This document shows positions 24,449-33,801 of a stretch of DNA of 64,000 bases, one piece after another. The stretch spans positions 131,037-195,036 of the forward strand of contig JAVZJD010000002.1 in assembly GCA_038870975.1 (NCBI GenBank), written 5' to 3'. The translations under genes and the position numbers were made by a program. The DNA is from Candidatus Bathyarchaeia archaeon. Lineage in GTDB: Archaea > Thermoproteota > CALKCG01 > B24. How positions within the stretch are numbered: the stretch's first letter is position 1; the number at the start of each line of letters is the position of its first letter. Below the pieces are notes generated by a model, which was not told where the DNA came from, ran no database searches, and worked only from the letters and a program-made list of their open reading frames with translations.

Positions 24449-25684
24449 CTATACGGATTGAGAGCGTAGCTCTTCTTTTACAAAGCTTTCAACTTGACTG
24501 AGTAAGCACTCTTCATCTACCATCTTCTTTCCCATTGAGTAGGCCTCATCTACCGCTTCAAGCACTATGTTTTTAACGTCCCTAGGCGTTATACAGTATT
24601 CATCTCTAACTTTTATATTTCTCCTAGGGATAGAGGCTTCATATACGAGCCTTCTACGCTTTATGATGGACCATATCTTTTCAAACACCTCCTCTTTCAA
24701 CACCTTGCCATCTTTAAGGCTTGCATCTAAAACTATTTTAGAGGTGTAGAAATCGAACAGCCGTTTAACAGTCTCCCTCGTCTTAGGAGGTGGAACGTAA
24801 AGGATCTTCTTTACTCTATCTAATAGGGCTGGGTCTATAACCGATGGAAAGTTCGTCGCGAATATGACAGCAATATTCCTATTCGTTTCGAAGCCTTCAC
24901 CTAGCTCTATAAGAAGTTGGTTTAACATACCCTGGACGTCTCTACCAGCATCTGTAGTTACATCAACTCTAGACCTTCCTATGGCATCTACCTCATCTAT
25001 AAACAATATACTTGGAGCCACATCCCTGGCAAGTCTGAAGATTTCTTTAATGTTCCTGGCAGATTCTCCAAGCCACTTCGACACGACTTCATACCCGTCA
25101 ACTTTTATGAAACTAGTCTTACAGCCGTATAGTGTACATGTGCCAGCTATAGCCTTAGCCATGTAGGTTTTCCCAGTACCCGGCGGACCATAGAGTAGTA
25201 CTGATCCACCTTCTTCTAGAAGTCTTTTGTCGAGGAGGAGGTTTTCTCTCCGCTCTCTACTAAGAGGGTTTAAAATCCACTCTACTACTTTTCTAAGCTC
25301 GTTAAGCTCATATTCAAGACCTACTACATCATCGTAGTATACCCGGACTTCCTTCTCAATTTTATAGCTCCAGGCGGTTCCATCTCTAAGATTCTCAATA
25401 AAACCTATGATCGTTCCCCTATTTGGAGAAAGTATCACATCCATATTGGGTGTAATCTTACCTAGGTATTCAGGTGGAATAGATACTTCGTATAATTGGC
25501 CACTGAATTTGACATAAGCCCTATTATCCCTAACGTCAACTACAGTGCCGACAGGCTTCATACCTTGCTTAAGCTCTTCAATAGTCTGATAGCACTTCCT
25601 CAACTCCATCTGCAAATACTCTATTTGGCGCTCTTTACGCATAAGCTCCCGTTCAAGCTCGTAGATTTCACTATACCTATCCAT
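24449..25684 (-). CDS. AAA+ ATPase, proteasome-activating-nucleotidase (PAN)-like with N-terminal coiled coil
   Basis: Coiled-coil N-terminus, OB-like segment, Walker A LYGPPGTGKT, Walker B ILFIDEVDAIG, second region of homology. Confidence 0.65.
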   Translation of the reverse strand: MDRYSEIYELERELMRKERQIEYLQMELRKCYQTIEELKQGMKPVGTVVDVRDNRAYVKFSGQLYEVSIPPEYLGKITPNMDVILSPNRGTIIGFIENLRDGTAWSYKIEKEVRVYYDDVVGLEYELNELRKVVEWILNPLSRERRENLLLDKRLLEEGGSVLLYGPPGTGKTYMAKAIAGTCTLYGCKTSFIKVDGYEVVSKWLGESARNIKEIFRLARDVAPSILFIDEVDAIGRSRVDVTTDAGRDVQGMLNQLLIELGEGFETNRNIAVIFATNFPSVIDPALLDRVKKILYVPPPKTRETVKRLFDFYTSKIVLDASLKDGKVLKEEVFEKIWSIIKRRRLVYEASIPRRNIKVRDEYCITPRDVKNIVLEAVDEAYSMGKKMVDEECLLSQVESFVKEELRSQSV

Positions 25685-27552: not shown

Positions 27553-27852
27553 TTGGGGTTAGCCTTGAGGGAGTTCAAGTACTGTTCTCCTGACTGCTCA
27601 TTCTTTAGATGTGGTAAAAAAGCTTTGAAGACTGGTAAAGGGACTATGTGGTGCACCTACACAAACGACTACTGTGTAGGATACAAATGCAACTATGCAA
27701 GTTGCATCAGAAACAAACTGTTGAATGACGGTATCTGCGGCTTAACCGTAAAACGGAAATCTGAAGATTTAGAGATACCTGAAGAGCTGGATGTTCAAGT
27801 TAAAGTTAGAAGTAAAATAATGAAGAAGTTAGGCGAGAAAGAGATATTCTAA
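27553..27852 (+). CDS. Small Cys-rich protein (99 aa), unknown function
   Basis: 11 Cys in first 70 aa, Lys-rich C-terminus; could be non-coding. Confidence 0.3.
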   Translation: MGLALREFKYCSPDCSFFRCGKKALKTGKGTMWCTYTNDYCVGYKCNYASCIRNKLLNDGICGLTVKRKSEDLEIPEELDVQVKVRSKIMKKLGEKEIF

Positions 27853-27875: not shown

Positions 27876-28667
27876 TTAAACGAGTATGGAATTGAAGTTG
27901 CTAGGCTTACAGATTATTCTCAAGTCTGGTAGGCCATACATGAGTGTTGTTTTACCTGGTAATTCTATCTCTCGACCCAGTTTTTCAACGTAGGTTTTAA
28001 ACGGATAGTCTTCACTTTCAACTTCAACTCTCCCCCCTATGAGGAGTTCTTCTCTTTTCCAAGCGTTAACTCTTATCCTTGCTTTTAGGTCAACTATGCC
28101 TTGAACGGGTTTCCTACGGGATACCAGTGTCTGTATGTCTCCATAAGCTGTCTTCGACGGAGTTACATCTATCGTAAACTGCTCTAAGTCTCTTTCGAAG
28201 AGAAACTCAGCCCCAGGCTTTTCTGAAGGTATTGGCCCGATTATGGCCGTTGAGACGGTTTCACCTCTAAGCTTATATTTAAGCCAGAGGTTCACTAAAC
28301 CTCTTCCACTCATTTCCTCCGGTTTTAAACACCATTCTATTACGGAGAAATCTTCGTTTGAACCTTCCACACCGTCAACTTTAAAACAGACGCCCCACAG
28401 GAAGTTTGGATTCCCTATAAATTTAGGCTTTACGTAGTGCCATGATAATCTAACTCCACCTACGGATTCATTTACATACTCTGGTTGGCTCGGATAAAAG
28501 TCTTTAAAAGAACAGCCTTTAAACCCACCGATTTCAATGGTTATTTTATCCTCTGGTGAGAAGTTATGCGTTTCTGGTTGAGACGTGTGGATGGCAAGAG
28601 AAATAGATGACGGCTTAATCCCTTCTTGTGAAATATAAAATTCAACTGTTTTGAAGACTTTAAACAT
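27876..28667 (-). CDS. Hypothetical protein (263 aa), divergently transcribed from the HerA-like ATPase gene
   Basis: Long ORF with compositional coding signal; no recognisable motif. Confidence 0.5.
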   Translation of the reverse strand: MFKVFKTVEFYISQEGIKPSSISLAIHTSQPETHNFSPEDKITIEIGGFKGCSFKDFYPSQPEYVNESVGGVRLSWHYVKPKFIGNPNFLWGVCFKVDGVEGSNEDFSVIEWCLKPEEMSGRGLVNLWLKYKLRGETVSTAIIGPIPSEKPGAEFLFERDLEQFTIDVTPSKTAYGDIQTLVSRRKPVQGIVDLKARIRVNAWKREELLIGGRVEVESEDYPFKTYVEKLGREIELPGKTTLMYGLPDLRIICKPSNFNSILV

Positions 28668-28788
28668 TTTCCACCTAGAATTTTAAGGTTACATCTGTTT
28701 ATATAGGTTTGCCTATGATAAATTGCAAGTTATCCACGCTCTTCTTCAACTCGAAGAAGTATAAGAAAATTCTTTAGGAAGTTGGCAT

Positions 28789-31779
28789 ATGGTTAAAATG
28801 AGTAGTTTGTCTGAAGAGGCTATCGGGATAGTAGAGGGCGATATCTCAGTAACAAAGTTCAGGTTTAAAGCTTTAACTGAAGACGTCGGGATAAACGACT
28901 ATGTTGAACTCCGGCATGAAGGAGAGAGTTACGTAGCATTGATCACCAACGTCCATAGGACTGTAGACAGCATCCTATGTGAATGTAGCCTCATAGGTTT
29001 AGGGCCCAGAAAACCTCTACCTGTTGGAACGATGGTTTACAAAGTTTCAGAGGAAAATCTTAGAAAAAGCCTGGGTTTAACAACAGATGAGAAGAAGGGT
29101 ATATACATAGGGCGTTTGATAGGCTACGGTTGTAAAGTCTTTCTACCGATTAAAGGCATGGGTAGGATATTCATAGTCGGCAAGCCCGGCTCAGGAAAAA
29201 GCTACACTGTCGGTGTCATAGTTGAGGAGTTTCTTAAAAAGGGTATTCCAGTCGTTATAATAGACCCGCATGGTGAATACTCTAGTCTGAAGATTCCAAA
29301 CCCTTCATCAAATCAAGAAGTCGAGTCCAAATCATATGTAAACCAAGTTTTAGAATTTGGAGATCCTCAGATAAATCCAGGTGTTGATGTTGGATTAGAG
29401 TCTCTAAGGGTTGCTGAACCTGAAGACCTAGTCGTACCTGGTCAGTGCACCATTATAAACCTAAGAGGAATAGTCGAAGAAGAACAGGTTGCATTAGTAA
29501 GCGAAGTTTTAGATAAGCTTTTTCAAGCATCCATAACTAGAAGGATTAAACCCTTCTATTGCTTTATGGATGAAGCCCACAGGTTTGCGGGTAAAGAGAA
29601 GAGGTCCACGACAGAGTTTGTTAAGAGGTTTGCACAAGAAGGACGGAAATTTGGGGCAAACTTAGTAGTTGTAACTCAGAGACCCCAGCTCCTAGATACT
29701 ACTGTTAGAGGCCTTGTCGGTACTTGGATAATACACAGAGTGACAGATCCGAATGATATTAAAATAGTTTTAGAGAGTGGAGGGCTGGGGAAGAAATGGG
29801 AGGATATAATACAATGGCTTGATAAAGGTGAGGCCGTGGTCACTGGAGAAGTTGTTGAAAAAGTTCCAATACTTGTCAAAATAAGGGCTAGGGAAACCAT
29901 GCATGGTGCCCCTGGCTTCAACCCACTTGATTTTGCTGAGCCAGAGTTGAAAGATAAGATTTCACAGCGTATTAGAGATACTAAGCGTAGGCTTGTAAGT
30001 AGGCAGAGGGATGAGCAGTACTGGGATACTCCTCCAGATATAACTCCAGACCTACCTCAAGGGTTTCTACCGATGAAAATAGATGTAAAGATGATCGTGG
30101 ATAGACTTTCGAGTAAATGTCCATATCTATCTCTTGAACTCAACGATTACAGGCTCGAATTTAAGCCTGCACTTCAATATGAACTTCGAGCTCAAGTTAG
30201 TAGACGTGAGCCTAATGTAAATTTCCAGTCTGAGTTAGTCGGTTTTACGCCCTTGGCCGAGGGCTTCAATTTAGCACGTACAGATGCATATGGAGTGTCT
30301 TTCGACGAACTATCCTCCACTGTACTCTTAACCGAGCCTCCGTCTAAAGGTCGTTATGTTCAACCTGGTGTGGATTTATCTGAACGCGGATTTAAGAGGC
30401 TTCTCAGGGGTTTAAAGGTAAATACCTCTATGAGGCTTGCTCAAGTAGTCTACTATCACCCTGGCTTAGGCTACGCCTCTCAAACTTCAGATAAAAAGGC
30501 GTTCATCGAAGAGTGCCGTCGAGAGGCTAAGCGTCTAGTAGAGGAGAAGATTAAGCAGGAATTTGACAGTCTTCAGAAGGTTCTGGAGAACGTAAGAGAA
30601 GAGTATAAGCGTAAGAAAGAGATGCTGATGAAATATGTAGATGAATTGGAAGAACTCACAAAGAGCGTTAAACGACTTAAAAACGAACTTAGCGATGCCA
30701 GAAGGTCGAGTAGGCCGAATCGGAAAATTAGAATTATGGTTGAGACGAGGGAAGAGAAAATTGAAAAACTTCAGAAGAGAGTTGCCACATTGGAGGAGGA
30801 GCTTAAAGAGCTTAAAAAATATGAAGACGCTTTACTTCAAGATTGGAGCATTAAAATGAACTCAATAAAGGAGAAGTATTTGAATCTCGAAAAAACGGCT
30901 GTAAGAAGCTATGTCATACAGCCCACTTCTAAAGAGCTTGAAGTAGCCCTCCTTCAGCTTGTATGGGTTCCTACATTTAAGGCAATTTTTACAGTTTCCT
31001 CCGGTGACGTTAAGACAACTATGGTCTTATCTTGGAACGCTATCAACGGTAAAGGGTTTTATGGAGAATGCGTAGAATGCGGAAAAACCGCAGAGACGGC
31101 TGATGAGTTTCTACTGTGCGGAGTCTGTCTTAAACCGATATGTGACGAACATAAACACATATGCGAGAAATGTGGGAAACCTATATGTTCAGTTCACTCT
31201 TGGAAGTGTAGTGTTTGCAATAGAATACTATGCGATAGTGAGGGGAGATATACATGTGGTTTCTGTTCAAAGCCCGTCTGCGGAGAGTGCTCTAGAAAAT
31301 GTGCAGAATGTGAAGCCTCTATTACGTATTGTCCAGTTGACATCGTTGAATGTCCTCATTGCAGTTTAAATCTGTGTAAAGAGCATTTTAAGGAACATTT
31401 AACATGGTGTGACGTATGCGGTGAAGAGCTATGTATTAAATCTTCCTCCCTTTGCTCAGTGTGTGGTAAAACTCTCTGTACTTCATGTATAGTGAAGTGT
31501 TCTAAATGTGGTAAGCCAGTTTGTCCAGACCATGCATGGACCTGCAATGTCTGTGGAAGAAACTTCTGCTCAAATGAAGAAAAGCATATTTGTGAAATCT
31601 GCGGTAAACCACTATGCGCTGATGATTTTGTTAAGTGTCAATCTTGCGGAGCCTCCGTGGGGCGTACTCGTATAATTAAATGTCCAAGTTGCGGTAGAGA
31701 AGTGTGTGAAAACTGTCTCGTCGTTAAAAGGAAGGGTTTATTTAGAAACATCGGTTGCAAATTATGTCTTGGTGATTAG
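28789..31779 (+). CDS. HerA/FtsK-like (DUF87-type) P-loop ATPase fused to coiled-coil region and C-terminal array of ~12 tandem CxxC-x4-C zinc-ribbon modules
   Basis: Walker A GKPGSGKSYTVGV...IDPHGEY, Walker B/helicase-like CFMDEAHRF, ...VVTQRPQLLDTTVRGLVGTWIIHRVTDPNDI (HerA-type); aa ~560-690 heptad-rich; aa ~765-996 repeated CxxCGKPxCxxH/C units. Confidence 0.7.
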   Translation: MVKMSSLSEEAIGIVEGDISVTKFRFKALTEDVGINDYVELRHEGESYVALITNVHRTVDSILCECSLIGLGPRKPLPVGTMVYKVSEENLRKSLGLTTDEKKGIYIGRLIGYGCKVFLPIKGMGRIFIVGKPGSGKSYTVGVIVEEFLKKGIPVVIIDPHGEYSSLKIPNPSSNQEVESKSYVNQVLEFGDPQINPGVDVGLESLRVAEPEDLVVPGQCTIINLRGIVEEEQVALVSEVLDKLFQASITRRIKPFYCFMDEAHRFAGKEKRSTTEFVKRFAQEGRKFGANLVVVTQRPQLLDTTVRGLVGTWIIHRVTDPNDIKIVLESGGLGKKWEDIIQWLDKGEAVVTGEVVEKVPILVKIRARETMHGAPGFNPLDFAEPELKDKISQRIRDTKRRLVSRQRDEQYWDTPPDITPDLPQGFLPMKIDVKMIVDRLSSKCPYLSLELNDYRLEFKPALQYELRAQVSRREPNVNFQSELVGFTPLAEGFNLARTDAYGVSFDELSSTVLLTEPPSKGRYVQPGVDLSERGFKRLLRGLKVNTSMRLAQVVYYHPGLGYASQTSDKKAFIEECRREAKRLVEEKIKQEFDSLQKVLENVREEYKRKKEMLMKYVDELEELTKSVKRLKNELSDARRSSRPNRKIRIMVETREEKIEKLQKRVATLEEELKELKKYEDALLQDWSIKMNSIKEKYLNLEKTAVRSYVIQPTSKELEVALLQLVWVPTFKAIFTVSSGDVKTTMVLSWNAINGKGFYGECVECGKTAETADEFLLCGVCLKPICDEHKHICEKCGKPICSVHSWKCSVCNRILCDSEGRYTCGFCSKPVCGECSRKCAECEASITYCPVDIVECPHCSLNLCKEHFKEHLTWCDVCGEELCIKSSSLCSVCGKTLCTSCIVKCSKCGKPVCPDHAWTCNVCGRNFCSNEEKHICEICGKPLCADDFVKCQSCGASVGRTRIIKCPSCGREVCENCLVVKRKGLFRNIGCKLCLGD

Positions 31780-32630: not shown

Positions 32631-33374
32631 ATGTGGATTTCAAGATGGCTTGGCGAGTGCTACTCGAAACTTTATGCAAAGTTTGGAATTGATTTATTCA
32701 CTTTAAAGGAGGCTAGAGAAGTTTTACCGTTTAGTGAGAATAAGATTTCCGTTGCCTTTAGTATGCTTCATTCTAAGAGGTTTTTATTGGTTTTTAGTCG
32801 GAAAAAGCCTAGAATGTATAGGCTTTTAGACCCCGAGAACATGGTTTTCCTAGCGTCTGGACTTGTTAAGAATTTTGACAGGATTTACCAGGAAGCATAT
32901 CTAAAACTTATACTGAATTGCCTTCATGCCTCTCTAAAGCTTTTAGATTTAGAGAGTTTTGCCGTCTACGGCTCTGTAGCTAGGGGTAAGGCATCAAACA
33001 CAAGCGACTTGGATATCCTTCTTATTTCAGATTCCCTCTACGGCAGTATAGCTTCTAGGATGAGGGAGATGTATAAAATTAATGAGTTGGTTCAGGATGA
33101 ATTGAAATGGCTTAGAAGGCACGGCATATATGTAGGTTTAAGCTTCTATCCTTTGAGGAAGAGTGAAGCTGAGAAACTGCCGATTTTATTCTTAGATTTA
33201 ACTGAGGATGCCGTGATACTCTATGATAGAAGAGGCTTCTTAGAAGGCCTACTTTTAGATTTAAAGGCTAAGCTTTTAAAGAGTGGAGCAAAGAGAGTAC
33301 CCATCGATGGTAACCGTTGGTACTGGGATTTGAAGCCGGATTATAAACCTGGTGAATCCATTGAAATTGCTTAA
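32631..33374 (+). CDS. Minimal nucleotidyltransferase (MNT) with N-terminal winged helix; antitoxin-like partner of HEPN
   Basis: ...FAVYGSVARGKASNTSDLDILLISD... (GS-x9-13-DxD MNT motif); overlaps downstream HEPN gene by 23 nt. Confidence 0.7.
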   Translation: MWISRWLGECYSKLYAKFGIDLFTLKEAREVLPFSENKISVAFSMLHSKRFLLVFSRKKPRMYRLLDPENMVFLASGLVKNFDRIYQEAYLKLILNCLHASLKLLDLESFAVYGSVARGKASNTSDLDILLISDSLYGSIASRMREMYKINELVQDELKWLRRHGIYVGLSFYPLRKSEAEKLPILFLDLTEDAVILYDRRGFLEGLLLDLKAKLLKSGAKRVPIDGNRWYWDLKPDYKPGESIEIA

Positions 33375-33801
33375 AATTGCTAAGGCTTATCTTCGCCAGG
33401 CTAAGGCTAGATTGGAAGACGCAAAGGATGCTGTTGTGGATGGAAATTTCCCCTACGCTGTGAGATTGAGCCAAGAATGTGTAGAACTATGTCTTAAAGC
33501 AATTTTGAAAACTGTGGGCGTAGAGTACCCTAAGGTACATGATGTTTCAGACGTTTTACTTGAGATTAAAGATAGGTTTCCAGAGTGGTTTAAAGTCGAA
33601 TTGGATTTTTTATGCTATTCGTCTAGGATCTTAACCATGAAAAGGGAGTTGTGCTTCTATGGAGGTGAAGAAGCGCTATTGTCGCCAGATGAAGTAGTAA
33701 ATAGGGAGGATGCGGATGATGCTACATCTAGGGCTGAGCGTGTTTATACATTATGTGAAAAATTGATTAAAGAGGTTGAAAAGTATGAATCTTCACCATA
33801 G
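33352..33801 (+). CDS. HEPN-domain protein (toxin-like partner of MNT)
   Basis: ...AVRLSQECVELCLKAILKTVGVEYPKVHDVSDVL... HEPN helix with R-x4-6-H-type motif. Confidence 0.65.
   Translation: MNPLKLLKIAKAYLRQAKARLEDAKDAVVDGNFPYAVRLSQECVELCLKAILKTVGVEYPKVHDVSDVLLEIKDRFPEWFKVELDFLCYSSRILTMKRELCFYGGEEALLSPDEVVNREDADDATSRAERVYTLCEKLIKEVEKYESSP

Follow-up and report, generated by a model that had tools for sequence, protein, structure and literature searches.

We have analysed a gene that joins a HerA-type ATPase to a coiled coil and a long cysteine array in a window of 64,000 nucleotides (nt) from a Candidatus Bathyarchaeia archaeon (assembly GCA_038870975.1, contig JAVZJD010000002.1, positions 131,037 to 195,036 of the forward strand). 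The window here always means this whole stretch, and positions are counted from its first letter. The gene encodes a fusion protein of 996 amino acids (aa) and is transcribed divergently from a gene for a 263-aa protein. An earlier note on this DNA, made from its letters only, had placed both open reading frames (ORFs) correctly; the spacer between them measures 121 bp (Table 1). What is new here is a HerA-family ATPase joined to a putative zinc architecture that has no existing model. In the source databases the fusion protein has no name beyond ‘DUF87 domain-containing’ or ‘helicase HerA domain-containing’, and our literature search found no description of a HerA/zinc-array fusion or of the array. 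Behind the bare DUF87 label there is a strongly constrained protein of ∼1000 residues.

Table 1. Features of the fusion gene and of its divergent neighbour (window positions, nt)
Feature	Position	Strand	Basis or remark
HerA-clade ATPase/coiled-coil/zinc-array fusion gene, 996 aa (predicted domains)	28789..31779	+	ORF, stop codon included; 94 full-length homologs
N-terminal domain, aa 1-104, presumed HAS-barrel-like	28789..29100	+	Precedes DUF87 match
P-loop ATPase core, aa 105-385	29101..29943	+	Pfam DUF87, AAA_10; HerA 4d2i; invariant motifs
Walker A	29179-29202	+	Inside ATPase core
Walker B	29554-29580	+	Inside ATPase core
VTQRPQ	29671-29688	+	Inside ATPase core
Beta-rich middle domain, aa 424-565	30058..30483	+	AlphaFold2 strands and helices, block pLDDT mostly 84-95
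Two-helix coiled-coil segment, aa 569-639 and 645-702, read as antiparallel hairpin	30493..30894	+	
Post-hairpin beta strands, aa 706-757	30904..31059	+	AlphaFold2; invariant columns
Predicted zinc array, aa 758-996	31060..31776	+	Cys counts, conservation, ligand spectra, half-versus-half hhalign
Divergent intergenic spacer, 121 bp	28668..28788		Sequence read directly; no strand
263-aa lineage-restricted all-beta orphan gene	27876..28667	-	Adjoins fusion gene, outside any conserved system

The ATPase core

By its profile matches, the protein is a P-loop ATPase of the HerA clade (FtsK-HerA superfamily) and not a canonical HerA. The Pfam model DUF87 (PF01935, the HerA central domain) reaches 61.7 bits, well above its cutoff of 23.2, and AAA_10 reaches 41.9 (cutoff 27.5), with the Pfam matches spanning aa 105–344; FtsK_SpoIIIE (PF01580), at 13.9 bits, falls below its cutoff of 24. 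The HerA-type Walker A (GKPGSGKS, aa 131–138), Walker B (FYCFMDEAH, aa 256–264) and VTQRPQ (aa 295–300) motifs that the earlier note had recognized are, together with QEGRKFGA, invariant in an alignment of 94 full-length homologs. Among PDB entries, Sulfolobus HerA (4d2i) ranks first by sequence, at E 5e-26 when the single sequence is the query and at E 1.9e-31 for the family profile, and bacterial defence HerA proteins rank after it. The profile alignment with 4d2i begins at query aa 68 and HerA residue 93, leaving aa 1–67 unaligned.

The difference from canonical HerA, also suspected in that note, is borne out. The NCBIfam equivalogs of canonical HerA, NF040819 and NF040937, give only partial matches of 101.3 and 99.6 bits against cutoffs of 970 and 800. 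Canonical archaeal HerA, the helicase of HerA-NurA-Mre11-Rad50 end resection, shares with the fusion protein the ATPase clade, the DUF87 domain and alignable Walker A, Walker B and downstream motifs. In contrast to it, the fusion protein has a much shorter insertion between Walker A and Walker B and carries ∼610 extra C-terminal residues (beta domain, hairpin and zinc array), and NurA, Mre11 and Rad50 are not among the conserved neighbours of its gene in the 50 loci described below.

With the anti-phage HerA proteins (Sir2-HerA and DUF4297-HerA; 8wiv, 8xau, 8j4u and 9c1m) the fusion protein has a HerA-type core and partial profile matches in common. The corresponding NCBIfam models stay far below cutoff, NF042943 with 61.7 bits (cutoff 800) and NF042944 with 52.7 (cutoff 850); the PADLOC HerA models match the core only, and a partial match to mad8 was seen as well. 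The model of CedD, the ATPase of Ced DNA import (NF053655), scores 83.2 bits against an equivalog cutoff of 600. No transmembrane segment is apparent in the 996-aa protein, whose top 19-residue Kyte–Doolittle window reaches 1.57 (the usual cutoff is ∼1.6) and falls in a segment predicted as a beta strand by AlphaFold2.

The middle domain and the coiled-coil hairpin

An AlphaFold2 model of aa 400–996, built from a 17-sequence alignment, has a mean predicted local distance difference test score (pLDDT) of 89.3. It contains, in this order, a beta-rich domain that has no Pfam match, two long helices, strands, and an array of short beta-hairpins with one-turn helices. The heptad-rich segment reported in the earlier note is a real coiled coil, but not a simple linear one, as in the model its two helices are read as an antiparallel hairpin inserted in the beta-rich domain. 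The strands after the hairpin include residues invariant in the 94 homologs (W726, P728, W749, N750 and G756). At the hairpin apex (aa 637–651, nt 30700–30740) the family consensus is A-x-K-E-G-R-S-T-L-K-L-S-x-Q-I, conserved at 43–77% per column, with 52–76% for its first part, A-x-K-E-G-R-S-T-L-K; this moderate conservation across the family suggests that the apex is an interaction site. The apex motif is degenerate in the window protein. Proteins of the HP0958/CT398/MSMEG_4306 family combine a coiled-coil hairpin with one C4 zinc ribbon and lack an ATPase; their match to the fusion protein stems from the generic hairpin.

The predicted zinc array

The C-terminal aa 761–996 hold 45 of the 52 Cys residues of the fusion protein, a Cys density of 19% compared with 0.9% elsewhere. 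The array consists of 13 units, CxxC-x4-C-x2-[H/C/D/E]-x3-4, plus an orphan CxxC pair at each end (C761/C764 and C990/C993). Thus the regular Cys array announced in the earlier note is there, while its description as ∼12 zinc ribbons did not hold: Zn_ribbon_3 scores 13.8 bits against a cutoff of 27, what weak matches there are point to cross-brace fingers (below), and within one unit only four residues separate the knuckle from the half-site.

Nearly all array Cys residues, along with H788, H866 and H870, are at least 94% conserved, and most are invariant, in the 94 homologs from several archaeal classes; the exceptions are C834 (91%) and C900 (56% Cys, the rest Asp or His). At the fourth ligand position of the units, either His, Asp and Cys interchange with nothing else or a Glu is invariant across homologs, which is a metal-ligand signature. 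Indels in the array are almost absent. Two natural variants, P0054 (944 aa) and P0061 (940 aa, Nezhaarchaeales), lack exactly four units (∼60 aa) with the repeat register intact, and these losses are consistent with a modular chained structure. An internal duplication relates aa 777–868 (nt 31117–31392) to aa 889–978 (nt 31453–31722), with hhalign of the two halves giving E 2e-32. Across the family the second half of the array has a mean net charge of +7.9 and the first half is neutral.

The earlier note had also left room for the array to match a characterized domain, and none turned up: we found no Pfam, NCBIfam or PADLOC model and no significant PDB match for the array, and phmmer with the C-terminus against the PDB gave nothing significant. 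Below cutoff, the array matches Prok-RING_1 (E 0.006) and FYVE (E 0.05; 14.1 bits against 27.8) in Pfam. The family profile matches eight or more FYVE structures in the PDB at marginal E values of 0.003–0.1; these include RUFY1 and WDFY3, whose alignments keep the register, as well as rabphilin, EEA1, Vps27 and Hrs. The interleaved ligand pattern of FYVE and other cross-brace fingers, C1xxC2...C3xxC4-x4-C5xxC6, is present in the array, where positions A(i), A(i+1) and B(i+1) align with the successive FYVE Cys pairs C1C2, C3C4 and C5C6. In the FYVE ligand scheme C1C2 and C5C6 bind one zinc together. The FYVE signatures WxxD and R(R/K)HHCR are absent from the array sequences.

Because of the register of the FYVE alignments and the orphan CxxC pairs at both ends, the most plausible reading of the array is not a set of zinc ribbons but a daisy chain of cross-braced zinc sites resembling those of FYVE and B-box fingers, with the knuckle of one unit and the half-site of the next predicted to share a zinc. 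The predicted topology offers up to 14 sites and would hold ∼12–14 Zn per chain. FYVE, B-box, RING and Prok-RING cross-brace fingers have the same CxxC...CxxC-x4-CxxC/H spacing, and the weak matches to FYVE structures and Prok-RING_1 keep its register; whereas the FYVE/RING-type domains bind two zincs, the array would form a continuous 13-unit chain in which each knuckle is shared with a neighbour. For cross-brace sites shared along an uninterrupted chain we found neither a model nor a solved structure. The window protein and its closest relative (P0001/P0002) have G958 and R961 (window 31660–31671) at positions that are Cys in 88 and His in 78 of the 94 homologs, and P0003–P0005 have G958 only. 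One putative zinc half-site is therefore lost in the subclade of the window protein, for which ∼12–13 Zn sites are predicted.

Distribution and inheritance of the fusion

The full architecture, 990–1010 aa long, was found in ∼94 cluster representatives (35–100% identity, ∼99% coverage), and the full-length homologs come from Bathyarchaeia, Nezhaarchaeales and Methanomethylicia/Verstraetearchaeota. Species-representative genomes were scanned with two peptide patterns and 80 loci were kept. About 50 of them are full-length, one per assembly, including those of two complete Methanosuratincola chromosomes and of Culexarchaeia. In a neighbour-joining tree of the ATPase domain the sequences group by lineage, broadly as in the taxonomy, and Asgard short forms fall outside; an odd long branch with two loci (L016 and L046) is probably an artefact of the choice of ORF start. 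In Methanomethylicia (Nezha- and Culexarchaeales included) and in one Bathyarchaeia subclade, the full fusion appears to have passed down vertically at a single locus per genome, a distribution that would fit a core gene of Methanomethylicia. A test for a viral or mobile origin was negative, and no relatives of the fusion protein were detected on viral contigs.

The closest relative of the ATPase domain of the fusion is the Asgard short form, a HerA-like ATPase of 490–570 aa (47–53% identical over the ATPase) with a coiled-coil tail of ∼100 residues and without the beta domain and the array. One short-form gene lies inside a complete ESCRT cluster of the Helarchaeota contig JAHPZH010000009.1 (L052:5084-11014), where the gene order is Snf7, HerA-like, Snf7, Snf7, Vps4 (MIT+AAA+Vps4_C) and an ESCRT-II subunit; in addition, a winged-helix gene with weak similarity to EAP30 stands two genes downstream in ∼16 Hermod-type loci. 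Such linkage speaks for a DNA pump tied to cell division, that is, an FtsK analogue clearing or segregating chromosomes with the ESCRT/Cdv machinery, and Iyer and colleagues are said to have proposed HerA as the archaeal FtsK analogue in 2004. However, of 30 Asgard loci a single one shows firm linkage to ESCRT genes, and none of the Loki-, Odin- and Baldr-type loci shows any, while no Cdv, FtsZ or SMC genes adjoin the long form in the 50 TACK loci. The lack of a membrane anchor and the low FtsK_SpoIIIE score also argue against a pump of this kind, and a 2024 survey of archaeal ESCRT neighbourhoods mentions neither HerA nor FtsK. We consider this explanation improbable.

Gene neighbourhoods of the fusion

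All ORFs within ±6 kb of the 80 loci were clustered. No neighbour family is common across classes in the 50 long-form loci. The commonest neighbour, an HMGL-like synthase, occurs in 23 of these 50 (TACK) loci and in none of those of the Bathyarchaeia relatives of the window, and the tRNA methyltransferase TrmI is conserved 3′ of the fusion gene within Bathyarchaeia only. The synteny of the long form with housekeeping genes holds at the order level. No Sir2, DUF4297 or other effector or nuclease gene is adjacent to the fusion gene in the 50 loci; unlike the anti-phage HerA genes, it lies outside defence islands and appears vertically inherited. The earlier note had compared the ATPase with those of defence or DNA-translocation systems. 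For the fusion family, the defence side of this comparison largely gives way to the pattern that the note itself had named as telling against it: the same fusion, at one locus per genome and among housekeeping neighbours, tracks taxonomy.

The same note had put forward the 263-aa gene as a candidate partner and suggested looking for a nuclease fold. A functional tie is favoured by the divergent arrangement across the 121-bp spacer, which is kept in the six closest Bathyarchaeia relatives. But these are the only fusion loci with the gene (6 of 50); it is missing from the other 44, including two Bathyarchaeia loci (L010 and L012) in which TrmI and a small flanking ORF (orf99, see below) are retained, so that it looks like a lineage-specific insertion. 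Its product has seven homolog clusters only (51–95% identity) and no Pfam, NCBIfam or PADLOC match. In the AlphaFold2 model (pLDDT 64, ∼80 in the N-terminal half) it is predicted to be all-beta, with no nuclease fold, and the idea of a nuclease partner was rejected. The gene is a lineage-specific orphan and not a partner of the ATPase; a (nuclease) partnership strikes us as very improbable.

The array module in other proteins

An exhaustive search with the array profile yielded 868 cluster representatives at E ≤ 0.001, of which 283 reach E ≤ 1e-10; a separate word-indexed homolog search with the same profile returned two proteins only. The architectures found are Mrr_cat followed by a coiled coil and the array, an SNF2 helicase with an internal array, DUF559/Vsr-like with UvrD and the array, E2 (UQ_con) with the array, and HerA-like with a coiled coil and the array. 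Proteins of the dominant cluster have an N-terminus of 300–400 aa of unknown type and a coiled coil, together with an array whose length differs greatly from protein to protein (up to ∼1100 aa). Profile–profile comparison places the coiled coil and the pre-array strands in common between the window family and the Mrr cluster (probability 97%), and probably also the dominant cluster (93%). These recurrent combinations indicate that the coiled coil with its putative zinc rod is a modular accessory, here called the arm, of nucleic-acid motors and nucleases.

The dominant cluster is linked to SNF2. In four of four loci examined the array gene stands directly 3′ of an SNF2 or kinase-SNF2 gene (L084:4229-8658, L089:4217-9156, L090:3273-10578 and L091:3111-10754). 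One gene order seen for the dominant cluster is SNF2, array protein, Mrr nuclease, MkoA-like helicase and DrmC-like PLD; GAP1-N2, DO-GTPase, TCAD9 and PglZ are found near the kinase-SNF2 and array pairs, and WYL genes also occur in dominant-cluster neighbourhoods. The Mrr-array fusion adjoins AIPR. No PADLOC model matches P0134, the only array protein tested. The SNF2 and array gene pair is a candidate for an uncharacterized defence module, and the arm marks this SNF2-linked system in defence islands.

Divergent fusions of a HerA-like ATPase, a coiled coil and the array were found in one Thermoprotei archaeon, one Asgard archaeon and one Anaerolineae bacterium. The bacterial one is flanked by Mrr-TPR and HNH genes; the archaeal ones, like the window family, have no nuclease neighbours in the loci inspected. 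The Thermoprotei (L092:2781-5657) and Asgard (L094:9085-12528) genes each adjoin a gene for a large CarboxypepD_reg/bMG3-type protein, which may be a coincidence, and in the Asgard locus transglutaminase, DUF4350 and MoxR genes then follow.

The presence of the coiled-coil/array module in defence-type islands of other proteins (the SNF2, Mrr and HerA-array loci) raises the question of whether the fusion itself is a stand-alone, anciently fixed immune (conflict) protein, whose array would sense an invader while the ring acts on foreign or self DNA, as in Sir2-HerA and DUF4297-HerA. The partial PADLOC HerA and mad8 matches would fit, as would an MNT-HEPN pair 0.85 kb downstream of the fusion gene in the window. 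We nevertheless regard this as unlikely. In addition to the lack of adjacent effectors or nucleases in the 50 loci, the order-level housekeeping synteny and the agreement of the tree with taxonomy, the length and the ligands of the fusion are near invariant across classes, whereas array length is highly variable in the defence-island proteins. The absence of relatives from viral contigs and the scores of 52–62 bits against 800–850 with the anti-phage HerA models point in the same direction.

The company that the array keeps also bears on the substrate of the motor. A ring remodelling proteins or RNA, with the rod as a protein–protein scaffold and possibly a link to ubiquitin-like signalling, would fit the existence of an E2 (UQ_con)-array fusion, the first array half that is not basic, and the nearest sequence relatives of the units, FYVE and Prok-RING cross-brace fingers, which typically bind proteins or lipids. 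Most of the other fusion or operon partners are DNA enzymes, though (SNF2, UvrD, Mrr, HNH and Vsr-like), and the characterized HerA-clade proteins that were matched are named DNA helicases or helicase HerA. Characterized HerA-clade proteins act on DNA. A non-DNA substrate seems quite improbable to us.

Proposed role of the fusion protein

Tentatively, and with slightly less than even confidence, we favour the reading of the fusion protein as a chromosomal DNA-transaction motor with a built-in anchoring or targeting arm. It is motivated by the attachment of the arm to a HerA-type motor and by a gene that appears vertically inherited at one locus per genome and does not resemble a mobile defence cassette. 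That the arm works with DNA-translocating enzymes, in anchoring, targeting or sensing, is suggested by its recurrent pairing with DNA motors and nucleases.

By analogy to HerA, the soluble ATPase would form a DNA-translocating ring. The C-terminal arm of each subunit would consist of the beta-rich domain with a projecting coiled-coil hairpin (∼70 residues per helix) and, after the hairpin and strands, a rod of ∼240 residues made of 13 chained zinc-binding units. In the rod, each zinc would be held between two successive units, by the CxxC knuckle of the first (i) and the C-x2-[H/C/D] half-site of the second (i+1), as in the cross-braces of FYVE, B-box and RING. Anchoring or targeting of the ring would fall either to the distal part of the rod, which is basic, or to the apex of the hairpin, and the task of the motor would be repair, segregation or compaction, with no dedicated nuclease partner encoded near the fusion gene. 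The data themselves establish how the domains are arranged, how the fusion is conserved and distributed, that no neighbour is conserved and that the arm is reused as a module; ring assembly, DNA as the substrate, the topology of the zinc sites, an anchoring function and the pathway in the cell are what we infer.

Several points weigh against this proposal. The DNA substrate, the formation of a ring and the binding of zinc are predictions only; cross-brace zinc domains usually contact proteins or lipids rather than DNA; and the array is not basic in its first half. The half-site lost in the window protein and its closest relatives indicates that not every site is essential. The phyletic pattern, core or patchy, depends on the two peptide patterns of the genome scan and its 80 retained loci.

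Rad50 provides a conceptual analogy only: it too combines an ATPase, a long antiparallel coiled coil and zinc-coordinating Cys residues in DNA maintenance. Rad50, however, is of the ABC/SMC type with a single shared zinc at the apex of the coiled coil, while the fusion protein is HerA-type with its array placed after the base of the hairpin. A more far-reaching and rather doubtful proposal would be that the hairpin and the daisy-chained zinc rod make up an undescribed, widespread accessory of DNA motors (>860 clusters at 50% identity in Archaea and Bacteria), which defines both a new SNF2-coupled conflict system and, in Methanomethylicia and some Bathyarchaeia, a domesticated HerA fusion that works as a motor in core chromosome maintenance and might be the missing FtsK-like DNA pump. 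Since the arm is repeatedly found on SNF2, UvrD and HerA motors and on Mrr nucleases, it may serve DNA translocases in general as a means of anchoring or sensing. The fusion protein is a tractable target for study because it is predicted to be soluble, comes from thermophile lineages and has a structural model of high confidence.

The surroundings of the fusion gene in the window

Read by eye, the 121-bp spacer contains TATA-like elements, TTTATATA at 28698–28705 and TATAAGAAAA at ∼28760–28769, which are putative promoters. GC content is flat (∼0.41) throughout the region. Judged by their predicted products, the genes around the fusion gene are archaeal housekeeping genes: tRNase Z, a radical-SAM enzyme, DUF2961, an AAA ATPase, the phosphoglycerate mutase ApgM, a PRC-barrel/zinc-ribbon protein, TrmI (GCD14), which starts 5 nt past the stop codon of the fusion gene, the MNT-HEPN pair and TIP49. 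The pair just mentioned consists of overlapping NTP_transf_2 nucleotidyltransferase and HEPN genes at 32631–33801 (+ strand), ∼0.85 kb 3′ of the fusion gene, and looks like a typical MNT-HEPN toxin–antitoxin-like module.

The AAA ATPase at 24449–25684 (− strand) is 411 aa long and has a coiled coil at its N-terminus, and its synteny extends to the six closest relatives. Over the AAA domain it is ∼38% identical to the Asgard Vps4; neither a MIT nor a Vps4_C domain was detected in it. The 99-aa, Cys-rich orf99 at 27553–27852 (+ strand), without a Pfam or NCBIfam match, is kept just upstream of the fusion gene in eight Bathyarchaeia loci (50–87% identity), some of which do not have the 263-aa gene.

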